Source: Candidatus Aquidulcis sp. (GTDB lineage Bacteria > Chloroflexota > Limnocylindria > Limnocylindrales > Limnocylindraceae). From it: DNA of 34,833 nucleotides. Positions 15,598-24,285 of the stretch are shown piece after piece. The notes beneath the pieces are model-generated. The model saw only the letters and a program-made list of their open reading frames with translations. It did no database searches and had not been told where the DNA came from. Within the stretch, counting starts at the first letter, position 1, and each line of letters opens with the position of its first letter. The position numbers and the translations under genes were made by a program. Where the stretch lies: the NCBI GenBank assembly GCA_003670455.1, contig QWRK01000003.1, forward strand, positions 1 through 34,833. The letters are read 5' to 3'.

Positions 15598-16482
15598 ATG
15601 GCAACAGCCAAGAAGTCCGCGCCAAAGCGCGCGGCCGCCGTCAGCACCGGGGTCGCGACAACGTTTGCCGCCATTCCGGCCGCCCGCGCGAAGCAGCTCT
15701 TTAACTGGAACCGGCTCCTTGTGCTCCTGCACGGGATCCAGGCAACCATCATCTGGTGGATCAGCCCAACTGATGCCCTAGTGCGATTCGAGGGGACATA
15801 TCCCGTATCGAAGATCGTCGACGGCCAGTTCGTAGGACTTGATTCGGCGAAGGAGCTGCTCATCAGCTTCCCACTCGCCTATCTCGTTGCTGCCTTCTTT
15901 CTCCTCTCGGCACTGGCGCACTTCCTCGTCGCCTACCCGTTCCGCAAGCGCTACGAGAGTTGGCTCGCTCGCGAGTTCAACCCAATGCGCTGGGCTGAGT
16001 ATGCGTTGAGCTCAACGCTCATGATCGTCGGCATTGCATCGCTGAGCTTCATTACTGATGCTGGCGCACTCATTGCCATTGCGGTCTGCAACGCTTCGAT
16101 GAACCTCTTCGGTTGGTCGATGGAAGAGGCAAACATTGGGCGCAAAAACGTTCAGTGGAGCCACTACATCTTCGGCTGCATCGCCGGCATCGCGCCGTGG
16201 ATTGCGCTGTTCACGACCGTCGGTCTCTCGCTGGCCAACTGGCCAACGGGCATTGGGCCAAATGGCCGCGACCTTGAGGCATTCAAGCCTGTGCTGATTA
16301 CGATCTACGTGAGCCTCTTCATCAGCTTCAACATCTTTGCAGTGAACATGGTGTTGCAGCGCTTGAAGGTTGGAAAGTGGGCTGACTACCTTCACGGTGA
16401 GCGCAGCTACATGATCCTCTCGCTCGTGGCGAAGACGCTTCTTGCGTGGCAGGTTTGGACCGGAGTGTTCATGCCAGCATAG
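15598..16482 (+). CDS. Heliorhodopsin (HeR)
   Basis: TM1 His 'LLHGIQA', TM2 'SALAHF', counterion motif 'NPMRWAEYALSS' and retinal Lys in 'LSLVAKTLLAWQ'. SD GGGAGG. Confidence 0.95.
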   Translation: MATAKKSAPKRAAAVSTGVATTFAAIPAARAKQLFNWNRLLVLLHGIQATIIWWISPTDALVRFEGTYPVSKIVDGQFVGLDSAKELLISFPLAYLVAAFFLLSALAHFLVAYPFRKRYESWLAREFNPMRWAEYALSSTLMIVGIASLSFITDAGALIAIAVCNASMNLFGWSMEEANIGRKNVQWSHYIFGCIAGIAPWIALFTTVGLSLANWPTGIGPNGRDLEAFKPVLITIYVSLFISFNIFAVNMVLQRLKVGKWADYLHGERSYMILSLVAKTLLAWQVWTGVFMPA

Positions 16483-16569: not shown

Positions 16570-17373
16570 ATGAGTAATGAGCGGGACCCTAGTGACACAA
16601 AGGGGCTGACGTACGCGAGTTACTTGGCGCTTGATGAGTTGCTCGGGCTACAGCGCCCGCGCTCAGACGAGCATGACGAACTGCTCTTCATTACGATTCA
16701 CCAAACCTATGAGCTCTGGTTCAAGCAGATCCTGCATGAGGTCCGAGGTGCCATGAGTGCCCTCGCTGCAAACGAGAGTTGGCGTGCCTCCCACAGGCTC
16801 AGCCGAGTTCGACATATTCTCAAGATTGCCGTCGCGCAAGTAGACATCCTAGAGACGCTCACCCCACTCGAGTTTGCCGCGTTCCGCAGCCGGCTCGCAA
16901 CGTCTAGTGGATTTGAATCCGCCCAGTTCCGCGAGATTGAGGCGCTCTTCGGAATCCGCAACGCGCGTCTCGCCGACCTACTCCCAGATGAGAAGGCTCG
17001 AGAAATCGTGCGCGCCACCTTGCAGGCACCAAGTCTCTGGGACGCAACGATCCACTGGCTGGCGGTTCGCGGGTCTGCGGTCCCAGCGCGACTACTCAGC
17101 CGAGATGTGTCGGCACCGTATGAGGGGGATGAAGATCTGCAAGAGGTGCTGCTTGAGATCTATCGTGCTGGAGGCGAAGCAGCGAGCATTCTCGAGCAGC
17201 TCGTCGATATCGACGAGGGTGTTCAGGAGTGGCGCTATCGACACGTCAAGATGGTGGAGCGAACCATTGGCCGAAAGTCGGGAACGGGTGGCTCTACCGG
17301 TGTGGAATATCTCGCCGCAAGCCTGCGACGTTCGCTCTTCCCAGACCTTTGGGCCATTCGCGACCGAATGTAG
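16570..17373 (+). CDS. kynA: Tryptophan 2,3-dioxygenase
   Basis: 'HDELLFITIHQTYELWFKQ', 'SGFESAQFR', 'WRYRHVKMVERTIG' and 'GTGGS'. TACTAT-6 nt-ATG. Confidence 0.96.
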   Translation: MSNERDPSDTKGLTYASYLALDELLGLQRPRSDEHDELLFITIHQTYELWFKQILHEVRGAMSALAANESWRASHRLSRVRHILKIAVAQVDILETLTPLEFAAFRSRLATSSGFESAQFREIEALFGIRNARLADLLPDEKAREIVRATLQAPSLWDATIHWLAVRGSAVPARLLSRDVSAPYEGDEDLQEVLLEIYRAGGEAASILEQLVDIDEGVQEWRYRHVKMVERTIGRKSGTGGSTGVEYLAASLRRSLFPDLWAIRDRM

Positions 17374-17382
17374 TTGGAGCGA

Positions 17383-18618
17383 TCAGGTCACCGTCTGCTT
17401 CGAAGCAAACTCTGGGGCACGCCATGCGTCGGTTCGAAGGATCTCGGCGAACGTCGCTACCGCGCGATCAATGTCGGCAAAGCTCACATAGAGCGGCGAG
17501 AAGCCGAAGCGCAGGATGTTTGGCGTACGGAAATCTCCGATGACTCCGCGGCTGATCAGCGCCTGCATGATCGGATAGCCGCTCTCGTGCGCAAAGGAGG
17601 CCTGTCCGCCGCGTAGCTGGCCCTCCCGTGGTGAGATGAGGGTGAGGCCATAGCCCTTGCACTCCGCCTCAACTCGCTCAATAAAGCGAGAGGTTTGAGC
17701 CATCGACTTGCGGCGAATCTCGGACATTGAGACCCCCTCCCACATCTTCAGAGACTCATCGAGTGCCGCCAGACTGAGCACCTGCTGCGTGCCCGTGATG
17801 AAGCGCCGAATGCCAGGAGCCGGCTCATAGTCGGGCACGAATGCGAACGGGCTCTTATGGCCAAGCCAGCCCTCGAGTGGCTGCCGTACCTGCTCAATCA
17901 GCGCCGGTGCAACCCAGGTGTACGAGGGTGCGCCTGGCCCACCATTGAGATACTTGTATCCGCAGCCGATCGCAAAGTCGGCGCCGTCGCGAGCGATATC
18001 AAGCTCAAGGACTCCAGTGGAGTGCGAGAGATCCCACACCGTCAGCGCACCAGCAGCGTGGGCCGTGGCACTCAGTTCGCGCATGTCACGGATCCGTCCG
18101 GTTCGATAATCCACGTGCGTCAACATCAAGACCCCTGCCCCATCAAGCACCGTCTCCGGGCTGACTGACTCGTTCCAGAAGCGCACCTCCACATTGGGGA
18201 GTAGTTGGCGTAGGCCCTCCAAGATGTACAAATCGGTTGGGAAGTTCTCGCGCTCAGTGACAACAACCTGCCGGTCGCCGCGTAGGCGCAACGCGGCGGC
18301 CAGCACGCGGAAGAGCGAGACGGACGTAGATTCACCAACTACCACCTCTCCCTTGCCGACACCGAGAAGTGGGGCGATCCGATCGCCAACGCTAAGTGGC
18401 AGGTTGTACCAATCAGACTCGTTCCAACTGCGGATGAGCCGCTCGCCCCACTGCCGGTCAATCACGTTGGCGACGCGCTCATGCACACCGATAGGCAGCG
18501 CCCCCAGAGAATTCCCATCGAGGTAGACGACTTCTGCCGGCAGGTTGAACCGCTCTCGCAGCGCAGCGAGAGGGTCCTGCGCGTCGAGCTCTGCTGCTGA
18601 AGGGGTGGGCTGCGTCAT
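17383..18618 (-). CDS. kynU: Kynureninase
   Basis: 'YLDGNSLGALP', 'WDLSHSTG', PLP lysine in 'GCGYKYLNGGPG' and 'GDFRTP..LRFG'. Confidence 0.96.
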   Translation of the reverse strand: MTQPTPSAAELDAQDPLAALRERFNLPAEVVYLDGNSLGALPIGVHERVANVIDRQWGERLIRSWNESDWYNLPLSVGDRIAPLLGVGKGEVVVGESTSVSLFRVLAAALRLRGDRQVVVTERENFPTDLYILEGLRQLLPNVEVRFWNESVSPETVLDGAGVLMLTHVDYRTGRIRDMRELSATAHAAGALTVWDLSHSTGVLELDIARDGADFAIGCGYKYLNGGPGAPSYTWVAPALIEQVRQPLEGWLGHKSPFAFVPDYEPAPGIRRFITGTQQVLSLAALDESLKMWEGVSMSEIRRKSMAQTSRFIERVEAECKGYGLTLISPREGQLRGGQASFAHESGYPIMQALISRGVIGDFRTPNILRFGFSPLYVSFADIDRAVATFAEILRTDAWRAPEFASKQTVT

Positions 18619-18630
18619 GCGTCTATCGTC

Positions 18631-19497
18631 TCACGTACCTGAGAGCTGCAACAACGCACGCGCATCTCGTAGTAGGGAGCCTCCCGGCGTATCAAGCTCT
18701 TCAAGCACATCGAAGTGATCGCGGCCAGGAACAGTCGCAAGCGAAACGGTGGCGTGGCTCGCCCACTTCTCGCGGAGGAGTTCTGACTGCCGGTGGAACT
18801 CCGATGGCTCATGTTCGCCGATCCGCAGAAGCACCGGAATGCTGCGATGTGGCACGTAATTGACAGGTGAGAGTCGCTTCGCCTCATCGGCACTCATGCC
18901 CACCAGGTTGTTGACGTAGCTCTCGGCGATTGGCTCAAGGTCAAATGCACCACCAATGAGCAGCAGCCCTGAAATCGCACTCCGTACCTTGGGCGGCGCC
19001 AGTTCGGTGACCAGCGTCGCGGCAAGATGCGCCCCCGCAGAGTGCCCGCCCACAACGATCCTGCTCGCGTCGCAACCGAGCTTCGTGGCGTGTTCAATTA
19101 AATGGGTCACCGCAGACGATGCTTCCGCGACAATCTCTGAGAGGGTGGCGGCTGGCGCTAGGGAATATCCAACGGCAACATGAGTTGCGCCGAGCGGGGC
19201 GAGCGTCGCTGCGTAGCGACCGCCATCATCAATCGAGCCCTCCTGCCACCACCCACCGTGAAACATCAGCAGCGCGGGGTGGGCTCCTTCACGATCCGCA
19301 AAGATCTCGAGGCGGTTGGCCTCACGCGGCCCGTAGGAGACGCGGTGATAGATGCCACTCGCCTGTGCGGTGCTCCGTGCAAGCGTGGTGCGCTCACGAC
19401 CGGCTGACATGGAACCAGCGGCGTCTCGCGCGGTGCGGCTTGGGGAGTACTCCGCATCGAGCCAGGCTCGCCGCTGGGGATCAGGGAACGAACTCAA
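18631..19497 (-). CDS. Alpha/beta-hydrolase, probable kynurenine formamidase (AFMID-like)
   Basis: 'FHGGWWQ', nucleophile 'GHSAGAHL' and 'DHF'. Directly upstream of kynU. TTG start is less certain. Confidence 0.8.
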   Translation of the reverse strand: MSSFPDPQRRAWLDAEYSPSRTARDAAGSMSAGRERTTLARSTAQASGIYHRVSYGPREANRLEIFADREGAHPALLMFHGGWWQEGSIDDGGRYAATLAPLGATHVAVGYSLAPAATLSEIVAEASSAVTHLIEHATKLGCDASRIVVGGHSAGAHLAATLVTELAPPKVRSAISGLLLIGGAFDLEPIAESYVNNLVGMSADEAKRLSPVNYVPHRSIPVLLRIGEHEPSEFHRQSELLREKWASHATVSLATVPGRDHFDVLEELDTPGGSLLRDARALLQLSGT

Positions 19498-19593: not shown

Positions 19594-20199
19594 TTAGATG
19601 AAGTACAGCAGCGCGAAGAGCAGAATCCAGACCACGTCAACAAAGTGCCAATAGATCGACGATGCCTCAACCATGTCGTGGTGCTCTGCCGAGAACTGGC
19701 CGAGGCTACCGCGGTAGAGGCAGACCGCCAACATCAGCACGCCGCCAAGCACGTGTGCGCCGTGGAATCCGGTGAGCACATAGAAGGTGCTGCCGAAGAC
19801 GCCATCAGAGATGCCGAAGCCGATCTGTGTGTAGTCGTACACCTGGCCGATAAGGAAGATCACGCCGAGAAGTACGGTCATTGCCAACGCGCGATTCATT
19901 CCCTGTCGGTCGCCTTTGCGAATGCGCCACACCGCAAACTGGCAGGTAACGGAACTCAGCACGAGCAGGGCCGTCATGATTCCTGGGAAGAGCGCCTCGC
20001 TGTGCAGTTCAAAGGCGGGGTTTCCTTCAGGTGGCCAGACCCCTGTTGCCGTTCGCAAACTGAAATATGCAGCGAAGAGTCCGGCAAAGAACATGATCTC
20101 CGAGACGATGAAGAGAAGCATCCCGAGTACTGGGTTGCCGAGCCCCTTCTTGCCGTGTGCGGCGCCGTGGCCGCTCGTTGCTACTGCGCCGTCGCTCAT
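19594..20199 (-). CDS. ctaE: Heme-copper oxidase subunit III (short form)
   Basis: 'LFIVSEIMFFAGLF', 'TGFHGAHV' and 'YWHFVDVVW'. ATGA overlap with subunit I. Confidence 0.95.
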   Translation of the reverse strand: MSDGAVATSGHGAAHGKKGLGNPVLGMLLFIVSEIMFFAGLFAAYFSLRTATGVWPPEGNPAFELHSEALFPGIMTALLVLSSVTCQFAVWRIRKGDRQGMNRALAMTVLLGVIFLIGQVYDYTQIGFGISDGVFGSTFYVLTGFHGAHVLGGVLMLAVCLYRGSLGQFSAEHHDMVEASSIYWHFVDVVWILLFALLYFI

Positions 20200-21821
20200 C
20201 CGTGATCCTTCTCGGAGCGAGCATGTCGAGCATCAAAGAGTGGGCGCTCTGAGGTGATTGGCGGCAGCTTGTCGAAGTTCCACGCCGGTGGCGGGGATGA
20301 GGTTGCCCACTCCAGGGTATTCGCCTCCCACGGATCGTCGCCCGCAAGCTTCCCGTTGCGCAGGCTGATGTACACGTTCCAGAAGAGTGGCAGCAACGAG
20401 ATGCCGACCAAGATGCCACCGATCGTGGCGGCGAGGTTGAGGTCGTTCCAGCCAGCCGTTGGGGAGTAGTCGGCGATGCGACGTGGCATGCCGGCAAGGC
20501 CGAGCGCATGCATTGGAAGGAAGGTCAGGTTCAGGCCAACCATCATGAGCACGAAGTGCACGCGCCCGAGACCCTCATCGAGCATGCGCCCCGACATCTT
20601 CGGGAAGTAGAAGTAGAACCCAGCCATGATCGCAACGAATGAGCCGCCGAAGAGCACATAGTGAATGTGCGCAACGATCCAATAGGTGGCGTGGATGGCG
20701 TAGTCGACCGGGACCGAAGCGCTGAAGACGCCATTGATGCCGCCGATCAGGAACATGCTGAGGAAGCCCAGCGCGAAGAGCATTGGCGTGGTGAAGCTGA
20801 TCTGACCGCGCCACATGGTCGCGATCCAGTTGAACATCTTCACCCCAGTTGGCACGGCGATCAGGAAGGTCATCACTGAGAAGAAGGGCAGGAAGACGCT
20901 CCCCGTCGTGAACATGTGGTGCGCCCAAACGCTGAATCCGAGTGCGCCGATACCGGCGGTGGCGAAGACGAACGCCTTGTAGCCGAAGAGCGGCTTGCGA
21001 CTAAAGACTGGGATGATCTCGGAGATCACACCCATCCCCGGCAGCACCATGATGTACACCGCTGGATGCGAGTAGAACCAGAAGATGTTCTGCCAGAGAA
21101 TCGCCGAGCCACCGAGCGTCGGATCGAAGAATGCCCCGCCGAAGTTTCGGTCGATGAAGAGCATCACCAGGGCGCTGGTCAGTACCGGTGTGCCCATGAG
21201 TACGAGCACGCTCGTCACAAGAACGGTCCAGACAAGGATTGGCATGCGGAAGAGAGTCATACCTGGTGCGCGCATGCGGAAGACCGTGACCATGAAGTTG
21301 ACGGCGCCAAGGATGGAGCTGGTGCCGACGAGGATGACGGCGACGATCCAGAGATTCATTCCCGGCCCTGGGCTGTATTTGATGTTGCTCACTGGTGGAT
21401 ACGCGGTCCAGCCGGCGTCTGCGGCGCCGCCGAGGAGGAATCCTGAAGCCGCAACGAGCCCAGAGAACGGAACCATCCAGAAGCTGAGCGCATTGATGCG
21501 CGGGAAGGCCATGTCTGGCGCGCCAATCATGAGCGGCACCACGTAGTTGCCGATCGCCGCAAGGAACGGAATGATCACCCAGAAGATCATGATCGAGGCG
21601 TGCATCGTGAAGAGCTGGTTGTACGAAGACTCGTCGAGGAACTGCAGCCCTGGCATCGCGAGCTCAGCGCGAACGCCGAGCGCCAAGAGGCCACCGATCG
21701 CCAAGAAGATGAAGGACGAGATCGTATAGAGGATGCCGATCTTCTTATGGTCAGTTGTCGTTAGGTAGTCATAGAGTGCCGACGGAGCCGACTTCTGTGC
21801 CACTGCTGAGTTCGTTGCCAT
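20196..21821 (-). CDS. ctaD: Heme-copper oxidase subunit I, A2 type
   Basis: 'DHKKIG', 'TMHA', D-channel 'PDMAFPRIN', 'YSHPAVY', 'WAHHMF', K-channel 'PTGVK', 'AHIHY' and 'GMPRR'. Confidence 0.97.
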   Translation of the reverse strand: MATNSAVAQKSAPSALYDYLTTTDHKKIGILYTISSFIFLAIGGLLALGVRAELAMPGLQFLDESSYNQLFTMHASIMIFWVIIPFLAAIGNYVVPLMIGAPDMAFPRINALSFWMVPFSGLVAASGFLLGGAADAGWTAYPPVSNIKYSPGPGMNLWIVAVILVGTSSILGAVNFMVTVFRMRAPGMTLFRMPILVWTVLVTSVLVLMGTPVLTSALVMLFIDRNFGGAFFDPTLGGSAILWQNIFWFYSHPAVYIMVLPGMGVISEIIPVFSRKPLFGYKAFVFATAGIGALGFSVWAHHMFTTGSVFLPFFSVMTFLIAVPTGVKMFNWIATMWRGQISFTTPMLFALGFLSMFLIGGINGVFSASVPVDYAIHATYWIVAHIHYVLFGGSFVAIMAGFYFYFPKMSGRMLDEGLGRVHFVLMMVGLNLTFLPMHALGLAGMPRRIADYSPTAGWNDLNLAATIGGILVGISLLPLFWNVYISLRNGKLAGDDPWEANTLEWATSSPPPAWNFDKLPPITSERPLFDARHARSEKDHG

Positions 21822-21833
21822 CTTCTCTCCCCC

Positions 21834-22919
21834 TTACGGCTGCGCTACGACGACGAGATCTGCGTACATGCCCTGTGCGTAATGACCTGCGATGTTGCAC
21901 ATCACGACATAGTTGCCTGGCTCAAGGGTAACGGTGACCATGCCTGGAGTACCTGGCTGCCACTCAGCCTGCTCGTCAATCACGTCGAGTGTCGCCTCGT
22001 CGAGGCGGCTCGTCGCCGAGTCCACAAGGTCAACCAGTTGCTTCCCTGTCTTGTCGCTGCGGACTACGAGGAACTCGTGCGCGATGCTTCCAGCGTTCGT
22101 CAGGTTGAATTCGATAGAGCCTGCGACATGCTTGGCGGCGGAAATCGTGATCCCCCACTCCTTCACCGTTCCCGTCATTGGGCCGGTGGCGGCTGCCTCC
22201 TCCTTCGGGCGGGTCGCCTCAATCCATGCGTCGTACTCTTCGCGAGTTACCACGCGCACCGTGAAGCCCATCTGGTGGTGCAACAGTCCACAGAATGCCG
22301 AGCACTGGCCGGTAAAGGTGCCGAGCTTGTTCGGCGTGAACTCGAAGTAGTTGGTCTTGCCCGGCACCATGTCGCGCTGGAAGAGGAACTGCGGAATGTA
22401 GAAGCCGTGGTTCACATCTTGGGCGACCAGGGTGATTTCGATGCGCTCATTGATCGGCACGACCATCTCTGGGTAGGCCGTAGCGGCACCGAAGATCTCG
22501 ATCTTCTCGGCTGGATAGGCGAACTTCCACTGCCACTGGTAGCCGACCACCTCGATCTTGACCCCAACGTTCTCCGGCTCTCGGGCATCAACAATGTTGA
22601 GCACGCGAGCCGAGGCGAAGAAGAGGGCGATGACGACAATGAGGGGGATCACCGTCCAGATGATTTCTAGGATGAGATTGCCGTGGGTCTGAACTGGGAG
22701 GGTGGAGTCACTTGGCTTGCGGCGGTAGCGGATGACCGACCAGATAATGAGACCCTGGACCAGCAAGAACACGACGGCGGCGACGGCGAAGACGAGGTCG
22801 TAAAGAGCCCGAACCTCCAGCGCCTGCTCGGTAACCGCAGGCAGGGGGAAGGCGGACTCGCAGCCACCCGCAATGAGGGCAACGGCGCCCAGCCCCAGCA
22901 GCAGAGAGAGTTTCTTCAT
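21834..22919 (-). CDS. ctaC: Heme-copper oxidase subunit II (CuA) with C-terminal type-1 blue-copper domain
   Basis: Lipobox-like 'IAGGC', 'LEIIWT', 'GYQWQWKFAY', CuA 'VNHGF...CSAFCGLLHHQM'. Extra domain 'N.GSIAHEF...CNIAGHYAQGM'. Start 22919 follows TATCAT-7 nt. Confidence 0.93.
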   Translation of the reverse strand: MKKLSLLLGLGAVALIAGGCESAFPLPAVTEQALEVRALYDLVFAVAAVVFLLVQGLIIWSVIRYRRKPSDSTLPVQTHGNLILEIIWTVIPLIVVIALFFASARVLNIVDAREPENVGVKIEVVGYQWQWKFAYPAEKIEIFGAATAYPEMVVPINERIEITLVAQDVNHGFYIPQFLFQRDMVPGKTNYFEFTPNKLGTFTGQCSAFCGLLHHQMGFTVRVVTREEYDAWIEATRPKEEAAATGPMTGTVKEWGITISAAKHVAGSIEFNLTNAGSIAHEFLVVRSDKTGKQLVDLVDSATSRLDEATLDVIDEQAEWQPGTPGMVTVTLEPGNYVVMCNIAGHYAQGMYADLVVVAQP

Positions 22920-22992
22920 GGTTGAGATGATACGCGCCCTCGGCGGGAGGCGCTCCGCCGCTATCCCGAGTGCGCCGGTCGGATTCCTGAGG

Positions 22993-24285
22993 TCAGCGCT
23001 CCGTGTGGGCAGGCTGGGCGTGCACCCGTGCGATGCCAGAGGTGAGGAGCGGGAGGGGCCCGAGAATGATCCCAGCGGCGCCAACGAACAGGGTGGCGCG
23101 GAGCCCAAAGTTCTCTGCGATCACTGAGCCAATGAGGGCTCCCAGGGGAAGGCCGAGCAGCATGACGGTCTTCATGGAGGCGTTCATGCGCCCGAGCAGT
23201 CGAGCTGGCGTAATGAGCTGTCGATACGTCACCTGATTCACGTGGAAGAGCCCCGCTCCGAAGAAGGCGATGAACTGCGTAAGGATGGCGAGTGCGGCAA
23301 TCAGCGGCACACCCATGGAGCGATCGAGCAGGGCAAATCCGAGCGGCATCACCGGCAAGATGAATCCGCCAAGAATGAGCGTACGTCCCATGCCGAGCCA
23401 CTTGACCACCTTGGCGTTGATGATCGTGCCCACAACGATGCCGACCGTCCCTGCGCCAATGACAAACCCGATTAGTTCAGTCGGTAGCGCGAGCTCACGT
23501 CGCGCGTAGGCGATGAGCAGCGGCCCACTCGCCAGTCCACCAAAGAAGTTGAAGATGAGGGCGGCGAGCGCATTGCCGCGAAGGTGCGGATGTTGCACGA
23601 CCCACGCGAGCCCTTCGCGCATCTCTCTCCAGAGACTTCGCTCCTCCACCTCCTGTTCGGTAAAGGTGGGAACTTCTTCAACATGGCGCACGCGTTGCAC
23701 CATCAGTGCCGAGACAAGGAAGCTGAACGCATCCACAACTAGGGCGATCGGGCCACTAAGGCGCGCCACGGCGATGCCCGCAAGCGCCGGGCCCGCAACA
23801 CCGGTTGCCGACTCCATTGCCATGAGGCGTCCGTTCGCGACGCCGAGCTGCGGTCCACGCAACAGTGCTGGGAGGTACGACTGATGTGCCACGTCGTACA
23901 GGAGAGTGCATGCACCAACAAGGAAGAGCACCGCAAGGAGGAGCGGCATGCTCAACGCGCCAAAGGCGAACGCGATCGGCACGACTAAGAGGAGTCCCGT
24001 TCGTGCAAAGTCTGTCGCAATCAACACGGGGCGACGGGTGCGCCGATCAAGCAGGGCTCCAGCCGGAAGGCCGAGTAGAACAAATGGAAGCAAGAAGGCG
24101 AGTTCTAGCAGCGCGATTGATCCGTTACTTGCTTGAATGACGTCAATGGCGATCAGGGGGAAGGCGATGTGTGAAACCTGCGAGCCGAGTGAGCTGATCC
24201 CCTGCGCGCCGAAGAGGAGGCGTACGTCGGCGTTCTGGAACGGATCGTCGACGGCGAGGCGAAGGCGCGCAAAGGGGTTTCTCAT
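22993..24285 (-). CDS. MFS transporter (DHA3/EntS-like)
   Basis: 'GALLDRRTRR', 'QSYLPALL' and 'RQLITPARLLGRMNA'. Start moved to ATG 24285 (TATCAT-6 nt); the longer ORF overlaps pirin. Confidence 0.87.
   Translation of the reverse strand: MRNPFARLRLAVDDPFQNADVRLLFGAQGISSLGSQVSHIAFPLIAIDVIQASNGSIALLELAFLLPFVLLGLPAGALLDRRTRRPVLIATDFARTGLLLVVPIAFAFGALSMPLLLAVLFLVGACTLLYDVAHQSYLPALLRGPQLGVANGRLMAMESATGVAGPALAGIAVARLSGPIALVVDAFSFLVSALMVQRVRHVEEVPTFTEQEVEERSLWREMREGLAWVVQHPHLRGNALAALIFNFFGGLASGPLLIAYARRELALPTELIGFVIGAGTVGIVVGTIINAKVVKWLGMGRTLILGGFILPVMPLGFALLDRSMGVPLIAALAILTQFIAFFGAGLFHVNQVTYRQLITPARLLGRMNASMKTVMLLGLPLGALIGSVIAENFGLRATLFVGAAGIILGPLPLLTSGIARVHAQPAHTER

Follow-up and report, generated by a model that had tools for sequence, protein, structure and literature searches.

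Subunit II of a haem-copper oxidase from an abundant freshwater lineage of the Chloroflexota carries, behind its copper A (CuA) domain, a second domain that is predicted to be a type-1 copper (Cu) cupredoxin. The gene, ctaC, lies on the minus strand at positions 21834..22919 of a 34,833-nucleotide stretch of DNA from Candidatus Aquidulcis sp. (GenBank assembly GCA_003670455.1, contig QWRK01000003.1, positions 1 to 34,833), which we refer to as the window. We propose that the fused domain is probably an accessory, tethered electron relay to CuA and that it is one of several interchangeable tethered cupredoxins. The predicted fold of the domain, its ligand set, its position, a 'Rosetta-stone' gene neighbour in related genomes and purifying selection together suggest an electron-transfer role in the service of CuA. 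The domain looks like an optional add-on, and not the sole way in for electrons.

Results

The C-terminal extension of CtaC

The CuA domain of CtaC is followed by an 11-residue linker, RPKEEAAATGP, which has no regular secondary structure (residues 237-247; 22179..22211, minus strand), and by a domain of 114 residues that runs to the end of the protein (residues 248-361; 21837..22178, minus strand). Profile matches, a family alignment, a structural model and a fold search all identify this domain as a sulfocyanin/auracyanin-like type-1 Cu cupredoxin. Its predicted copper ligands are H281 (22079..22077, in NAGSIAHEF), C341 (21899..21897), H346 (21884..21882) and M351 (21869..21867), the last three of which form the C-x4-H-x4-M loop CNIAGHYAQGM. 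A preliminary description of this DNA had read the extension as a type-1-Cu-type cupredoxin with a loop of the auracyanin/rusticyanin type. The ligands are where that description placed them, and both the model and a match to Pfam SoxE bear it out.

The SoxE match (24.5 bits against a cut-off of 21) is confined to the C-terminal extension, which Pfam Copper-bind also matches weakly. The sulfocyanin equivalog TIGR03094 scores only 18 against its cut-off of 168.4, so the fused domain is not sulfocyanin proper; judged by these profiles, it belongs to the SoxE-domain superfamily without being sulfocyanin itself. The NCBIfam equivalogs for EfeO (20.3 against 270) and CopI (14.8 against 280) likewise do not reach their cut-offs.

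The AlphaFold2 (AF2) model of the domain alone, built with 52 relatives in the input, has a pLDDT of 96.8 and a pTM of 0.89. When this model was compared with the PDB by Foldseek, the first match was Roseiflexus auracyanin (6kol, E 2e-8, TM 0.63), followed by the cupredoxin domain of Escherichia coli EfeO (7wgu, 2.5e-7), many azurins and then auracyanins A and B. Foldseek gave a probability of 1.00 for auracyanin, azurin and the EfeO cupredoxin domain, as expected of a Greek-key beta-sandwich. Modelling of the domain as a cupredoxin had been named beforehand as a check, and the confident model with auracyanin as its best fold passes it. Sequence similarity to auracyanin did not extend across the whole domain; in a phmmer search of PDB sequences, the matches to auracyanin B (1ov8, E 0.025, 39 residues) and 6kol (0.026) were limited to the Cu-loop region.

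The domain belongs to a populous family. Using a 125-residue query, phmmer found 3127 cluster representatives in the full library at E<=1e-3, and 588 at E<=1e-10. The best 150 of these 3127 matches were mostly proteins of 140-190 residues or tandem arrays of 2-6 domains, and just one of the 150 was a CtaC fusion (P0008, 371 aa). Family members are named in their sources as 'sulfocyanin-like copper-binding protein' or 'uncharacterized cupredoxin-like copper-binding protein'. We hand-picked 52 members from the best 150 matches, most of which have a lipoprotein-type signal. An N, an H, a G, a C and a second H never vary in their alignment, and at least 90% of the members keep E46, N106, G114 and M115 (domain numbering). 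The type-1 ligands are therein complete, with H, C and H in every member and M in at least 90%. Taken together, model and alignment indicate that the fused domain is a genuine cupredoxin and that its family, though large, is unstudied. Some relatives are elaborate: P0123 (836 aa), P0126 (919 aa), P0127 and P0128 contain 4-6 tandem copies of the sulfocyanin-like domain and may be chains of copper centres. In P0307 (630 aa), Kelch repeats are joined to a SoxE-like cupredoxin, and Kelch proteins are a possible further partner of the family.

The CuA part of the protein

The open reading frame (ORF) that encloses ctaC spans 23108..21834 on the minus strand. Translation is likely to start at the ATG at 22919; the coding part is then 22919..21837, with the stop codon at 21834-21836, and the product has 361 aa. 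The protein begins MKKLSLLLGLGAVALIAGGC, a lipoprotein-like signal. We read residues 1-20 (22860..22919, minus strand) as a signal peptide with a lipobox-like end, ...IAGGC, and the Cys is kept among close homologues in the alignment; CtaC is a putative lipoprotein. Two transmembrane (TM) helices follow (residues 31-64 and 82-110; 22590..22829, minus strand), which are helices in the AF2 model and match Pfam COX2_TM (1.5e-12).

The CuA domain (residues 115-236; 22212..22577, minus strand) was recognized from profile matches, invariant columns and Foldseek matches to solved subunit II chains. Its ligands H171, C206, C210, H214 and M217 are complete (CSAFCGLLHHQM) and are invariant in alignments of 22 and 44 sequences, and W131 in YQWQWKF is a conserved Trp. 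Between the two CuA cysteines the sequence has Ala at a position where Glu is usual. CtaC scores 177.9 bits against the A-family subunit II model TIGR02866 CoxB (cut-off 147.7), and 222.3 against the actinobacterial model NF050117, which is under the cut-off of 250.

The Pfam families matched by CtaC are COX2_TM, COX2 and SoxE, with no cytochrome c family among them. It has four cysteines (C20, C206, C210 and C341) and no CxxCH motif anywhere in its 361 aa. The absence of this motif, already remarked on in the preliminary description, separates CtaC from caa3-type subunits, which bear a haem c motif in the extension. The extension nevertheless sits where caa3 oxidases carry cytochrome c, as that description also proposed: the top Foldseek match of the full-length model is the caa3 subunit II 2yev_B (E 2.8e-19), aligned over 201 columns of the CuA part only. 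All matches of the full-length model were subunit II chains aligned over the CuA part, and no PDB entry found in this way spans both the CuA and the cupredoxin domain. A complex prediction for the CuA domain (residues 112-238) with the cupredoxin domain (score 0.01, mark 0.32) speaks neither for nor against their contact.

Downstream of ctaC are ctaD, for subunit I (20196..21821, minus strand; 541 aa; PF00115, 6.2e-161), and then ctaE, for subunit III (19594..20199, minus strand; 201 aa; PF00510, 3.4e-46). We searched five genomes of the genus for respiratory genes (G000, which is the window's own, G150, G001, G004 and G082; three are at least 90% complete). Each of the five had one COX1 match, and ctaD is the sole match in its genome. 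On these gene assignments, CtaC is subunit II of the single A-family haem-copper oxidase of this bacterium, a relative of Candidatus Limnocylindrus.

Integrity of the fusion and alleles without the domain

The same single 361-aa frame is present in 4 other genomes of the genus. The stretch is also contained in 20 public runs from 9 studies, mostly of lake or freshwater metagenomes, and we compared contigs of four of these over 21700-23000: X2 and X5, from DNA, and X15 and X17, from RNA. The X2 and X5 contigs cover the whole interval without indels. Record 25 of X5 (22148-22275) and record 15 of X2 (21823-22208) cross the junction with 0 differences. The additional genomes and the two lake DNA runs that span the junction show that the fusion is not an assembly error, and no stop or frameshift separates the domains. 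The X15 and X17 contigs have no cover over 21876-22139 and have no bearing on expression of the intact allele.

Intact and deleted alleles of ctaC coexist in the lake metagenomes. The deleted form lacks 21853..22173 (minus strand); its joint, 21852->22174, has 3 replacing letters, so that a net 318 bases are missing and the frame is kept. Depth at this joint is 28.7 in X2, 30 in X5 and 14 in the RNA run X15, while the intact allele has a depth of 27 in X2 and 16.5 in X5. A loose end of the X17 contig at 21852, only 15 letters long, is compatible with the same allele. The flanks of the deleted form differ from the window by ~9% and thus place it in a co-occurring sister population; it matches the ...GPMTGVVAQP alleles of two genomes of the genus, G014 and G018.

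Distribution, loss and selection

The nearest public contigs to the window bear the name Candidatus Limnocylindrus (93% identity) or belong to other metagenome-assembled genomes of Chloroflexota. One contig (L003, CAMAXG010000024.1), with a CtaC 91% identical to that of the window, is labelled Thermoflexus hugenholtzii JAD2, probably in error. We searched 42 genomes of the genus with CtaC and then inspected the loci. In the whole class, 112 of 121 genomes had a CtaC match, six unpublished genomes included, on which none of the specific statements here depends. The window's own genome has 872,547 bases in 62 contigs and is 67% complete.

A complete fusion in one frame is found in 20 of the 42 genomes (G000, G001, G002, G008, G150 and 15 others at 63-69% identity), and a fusion cut by a contig end in another three (G003, G015 and G148). 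Seven (G082, G073, G142, G009, G061, G153 and G005) have an unfused CtaC beside a divergently transcribed gene for a triple cupredoxin. Seven more (G004, G149, G156, G155, G010, G014 and G018) have lost the domain through an in-frame internal deletion. Two have CtaC fragments only (G007 and G006), and three have no CtaC match (G121, G011 and G144).

The loci with an unfused CtaC link the domain to the oxidase in the manner of a 'Rosetta stone'. In G082, for example, CtaC has 258 aa, and its divergent neighbour has 424 residues with an N-terminal anchor and three copies of the domain. The copies in the seven genomes share 51-65% identity with the domain of the window, and the motif HEF...CNI[AE]GHYK[AN]GM is present in every one. 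Fusion and triple-cupredoxin neighbour occur together in G138, G141 and G015. The neighbour gene is absent beside ctaC in the window, and a tblastn search of the window's incomplete genome with the domain returned the domain itself and no free copy.

The deletions have four different junctions: one shared by G004, G149 and G156, in which there is also a Cys-to-Ser change, one in G155, one in G010 and one shared by G014 and G018. We built a tree from the CuA/TM core of 30 rows of the genus and 3 outgroups (G142, G009, G153, G005, G007, G006, G003, G015 and G154 were left out). Deletions occur at two places within the 13-row clade (support 99/98) that holds the window's ctaC. On this tree, the domain has been lost independently at least three times.

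Where it is retained, the domain is under purifying selection. In 10 close pairs, the domain had a dN/dS of 0.06-0.24 and the remainder of CtaC one of 0.04-0.08; another 19 pairs that passed the dS filter gave 0.03-0.17 and 0.02-0.06. The C...H...M loop is kept in all 19 fused copies inspected.

Alignment A1 revealed two kinds of extension. The window's clade has HEF...CNIAGHxxxGM, whereas a more distant group of CtaC proteins, of 360-400 residues, ends in another, amicyanin-like cupredoxin with PHNV...CxVHPxM. When the window's domain was the query of a region-restricted search, 55 proteins matched at E<=1e-5, and 14 of them also contain COX2. In eleven of these 14 the identity over the domain is at least 63%; the other three match 25-62% of it and are one partial copy and two deletion remnants. 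As far as a word-based search can tell, the sulfocyanin-like CtaC fusion therefore seems restricted to the Limnocylindrus lineage.

The rest of the respiratory chain

The window's genome has a gene for CcsA-type cytochrome c assembly (PF01578), as do 23 of the 31 relatives searched (G000 included). It contains 30 stop-to-stop ORFs with CxxCH, and the 10 largest and most plausible of these were scanned against Pfam; one is a cytochrome c. A b6-type bc operon on contig C13 of the genome (L094, 4156-7173) encodes cytochrome b6 (PF00033, 1.9e-44), subunit IV, a Rieske protein and P0122. The last of these, with 341 residues, consists of a TM anchor, a haem c domain (CARCH), a Pro/Ser linker and an amicyanin/plastocyanin-like cupredoxin (PHNV...CTVHPNM). 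Its haem domain matches actinobacterial QcrC weakly (E about 1e-4 to 1e-3), and P0122 has a match in every one of 41 genomes of the genus. Directly after the operon is a gene for a Kelch-repeat protein (L094, 7047-8687, plus strand).

A further cupredoxin is encoded ~4 kb from the bc operon. P0303 (L094, 11081-12166, minus strand; 361 aa) has two subunit-IV (CtaF)-like membrane repeats, which score 24.6 bits with PF12270, just below the cut-off of 26.9, and a C-terminal amicyanin-like cupredoxin (E 1e-5). It recurs across the genus as a frame of ~366 residues. The gene after it encodes a thioredoxin-fold protein (Redoxin/AhpC-TSA) that could be a Sco/TlpA-like assembly factor. G082 has an extra gene after ctaE, also for a subunit-IV-like protein with an amicyanin-like cupredoxin (IPHNF...CEVHPNM; L096, 2138-3124, minus strand), which is absent from the window.

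Both amicyanin-like modules, that of the bc c subunit and that of the subunit-IV-like protein, are thus conserved across the genus. The sulfocyanin-like module varies: a genome may have it as part of CtaC, in the neighbouring triple cupredoxin or in both places, or may have it deleted.

In the five genomes searched for respiratory genes we found no free cytochrome c and no free cupredoxin. PF13442, searched genome-wide (PF00034 was not), matched only the bc subunit above the family cut-off; G082 had one additional match, of 17 bits, below it. The PF00127 cupredoxin matches were all parts of membrane proteins, with one more of them in G082. This suggests that the lineage has tethered carriers, and the general view that Chloroflexota have a single membrane would fit. 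None of the five genomes yielded Sco1/SenC or PCuAC, both of which we did find in control genomes. One of the five, G001, has a cytochrome bd.

Other genes near the oxidase operon

A kynurenine-pathway cluster lies directly downstream of ctaE (window 16570-19497), with genes for tryptophan 2,3-dioxygenase (plus strand), kynureninase (minus strand) and an alpha/beta hydrolase (minus strand) that may be the formamidase. A heliorhodopsin gene (PF18761, 5.1e-71; window 15598-16482, plus strand) is ~3 kb from the oxidase operon.

Discussion

A model for the tethered cupredoxin

We propose that the type-1 Cu cupredoxin, tethered to CtaC on the outer face of the membrane, would pass electrons to CuA, from which they would go to haem a and then to haem a3/CuB. 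The likely path as a whole is from quinol to the Rieske protein, to haem c, to the tethered Cu domain or domains, and to CuA. A membrane-tethered set of cupredoxins would then stand in for diffusible cytochrome c. The conserved core of this set would be the bc c-cupredoxin subunit and the subunit-IV-like cupredoxin, and the CtaC module would be an accessory, which may occur fused or separately or be lost. From their gene content, the bc complex and the aa3 oxidase are candidates for an obligate supercomplex.

The preliminary description had gone further and suggested an all-copper wire independent of cytochrome c. This part is not borne out, as the genome has both a CcsA gene and a bc operon that encodes a haem c (CARCH)-cupredoxin subunit. 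A cytochrome-c-free organism is ruled out by the same two genes, and most likely electrons still pass through one haem c. Nor can the domain be the obligatory point of electron entry, in view of the in-frame deletions in the genus.

Several results weigh against an electron relay through the domain. The domain is dispensable, having been deleted in frame in 7 of 42 genomes with four junctions. In both lake DNA runs the deleted allele has a depth similar to that of the intact one, and a contig of the RNA run X15 bridges the deletion joint. The deletions in the genomes, together with the deleted alleles in lakes, indicate that electrons can reach CuA without the domain. Also, the second-best fold match, the EfeO cupredoxin domain, comes from an iron-uptake protein and not from a carrier. 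Lastly, Sco and PCuAC were not found, so that a role in copper handling keeps some slight weight.

Comparison with known systems

Like subunit II of caa3 oxidases, CtaC has two TM helices, a CuA domain and a C-terminal, tethered domain on the outer face that would serve as a one-electron donor. The difference is that the tethered domain of CtaC is a predicted type-1 Cu cupredoxin instead of a haem c domain. Blue copper proteins are known in a comparable place in archaea: terminal oxidases receive electrons from sulfocyanin in the SoxM supercomplex of Sulfolobus and from halocyanin in Natronomonas (PMC3062577). As presented there, both sulfocyanin (SoxE) of Sulfolobus acidocaldarius SoxM and the halocyanin are membrane-bound and connect a Rieske/cytochrome b module to the CuA subunit in place of cytochrome c. 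The CtaC domain resembles sulfocyanin in its Pfam SoxE score and in having a C-x4-H-x4-M loop of the same type. Sulfocyanin and halocyanin, however, are separate archaeal polypeptides, whereas the CtaC domain is bacterial and fused to subunit II.

The auracyanins of Chloroflexus and Roseiflexus (6kol, 1qhq/1ov8 and 2aan) come from the same phylum, have the closest fold and the same Cu-loop spacing, and are membrane-tethered. They are free-standing, unlike the CtaC domain, which shares 17-20% identity with them and has an extra acidic insertion (residues ~290-320).

The actinobacterial bcc-aa3 supercomplexes of Mycobacterium and Corynebacterium (9qef, 7e1v and 7q21) work without a diffusible carrier: their bc c subunit has a second, tethered redox domain that reaches CuA. 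Chains of these complexes are similar to CtaC (Foldseek ranks 2-3), and the Limnocylindrus chain further recalls them in the weak QcrC match of the c-subunit haem domain and in its CtaF-like protein (weak PF12270). It departs from them in having an amicyanin-like cupredoxin where QcrC has its second haem c, and in the extra cupredoxins on CtaC and the CtaF-like protein. In three-domain copper nitrite reductases a cupredoxin donor is likewise fused to the copper enzyme that it reduces; these enzymes (PMC7201279, PMC6400189) belong to another family, NirK, and are not haem-copper oxidases.

Alternative functions

The sulfocyanin-like module, be it fused, triple or in longer tandem form, could instead be a separate input port that does not act in line with the bc complex and takes electrons from an optional outside donor, for example Fe(II), an extracytoplasmic dehydrogenase or reduced organic matter. 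A branch of this optional kind would explain the repeated loss of the module alongside the genus-wide retention of the amicyanin-like ones. The tandem arrays of 2-6 domains in the family, the EfeO domain as second-best fold and the acidic residues E46, D53, E72 and E80, conserved in at least 90% of members, also favour it. Rusticyanin and sulfocyanin take outside electrons in iron oxidisers, and amicyanin and azurin do so for amine dehydrogenases. Sulfocyanin is proposed as the Fe(II) acceptor of Ferroplasma (PMC10654088), which we count on the same side. Yet no candidate donor gene is linked to the module, since the neighbours of ctaC are an MFS transporter, pirin, LysE and kynurenine-pathway genes, and the habitat is oxic lake water. 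We consider a separate port unlikely. It is about equally unlikely that both ideas hold at once, that is, that a carrier-free copper relay leads from haem c through the amicyanin-like Cu of the bc c and subunit-IV-like proteins to CuA, with the sulfocyanin-like module as a swappable outward port.

There are two other explanations. The domain might be a decaying leftover that no longer matters in this subclade, the window's copy being merely not yet deleted. The clade of the window's gene does show at least three independent in-frame deletions in its 13 rows, and the triple-cupredoxin neighbour is missing at the window locus. All ligands are intact, however, and among five intact close relatives the dN/dS of the domain is 0.06-0.24 at a dS of 0.13-1.0, which is far from neutral; we regard decay as improbable. 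The domain might also capture, store or deliver Cu for the assembly of CuA and CuB, or buffer Cu at the cell surface, without carrying electrons. The absence of Sco1/SenC and PCuAC from the five genomes, when control genomes have both, would suit this role, as would the weak sub-threshold matches to CopI and EfeO. But these matches are far below their cut-offs, genomes in which the domain is deleted retain their single oxidase, and a full Cys/His/His/Met set in a rigid cupredoxin marks a protein of electron transfer and not a chaperone. Copper handling thus seems very improbable to us, and we retain the tethered relay to CuA as the probable function of the domain.

Significance

The two arrangements that meet in CtaC are known separately: blue copper proteins that replace cytochrome c as the donor of an oxidase, and cytochrome c fused to subunit II. 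The fusion of a cupredoxin to subunit II combines them. We found no description of such a fusion in the literature within our reach, which included PMC3750248, PMC8756737, PMC10654088, PMC9240420, PMC7300363 and PMC13212565 and excluded subscription journals and supplements, so that the preliminary description's view of it as undescribed holds to that extent. The main text of a paper on the Limnocylindria (PMC13212565) has 0 occurrences of 'copper' or 'cupredoxin'.

This abundant freshwater lineage has a second, sulfocyanin-like kind of fused domain, compared with the amicyanin-like kind of other Chloroflexota/Actinomycetota-like sequences, and the same genome also bears cupredoxins on the bc cytochrome c and on a subunit-IV-like protein. 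Specific to it are this second fused kind, the neighbouring triple-cupredoxin gene, a bc subunit that joins haem c to a cupredoxin, and repeated in-frame losses of the fused domain, with alleles of both forms side by side. If the combination of a carrier-free relay and an outward port were true, the sulfocyanin-like module would supply the oxidase with electrons that do not come from the bc complex, and repeated gain, fusion and in-frame loss of the module in lake populations that occur together would reflect selection by niche, by copper supply or by phages that target the cell surface. Finally, the alleles with and without the domain that occur in the same lake offer a natural comparison of what a tethered donor contributes to a cell that has no periplasm for soluble carriers.

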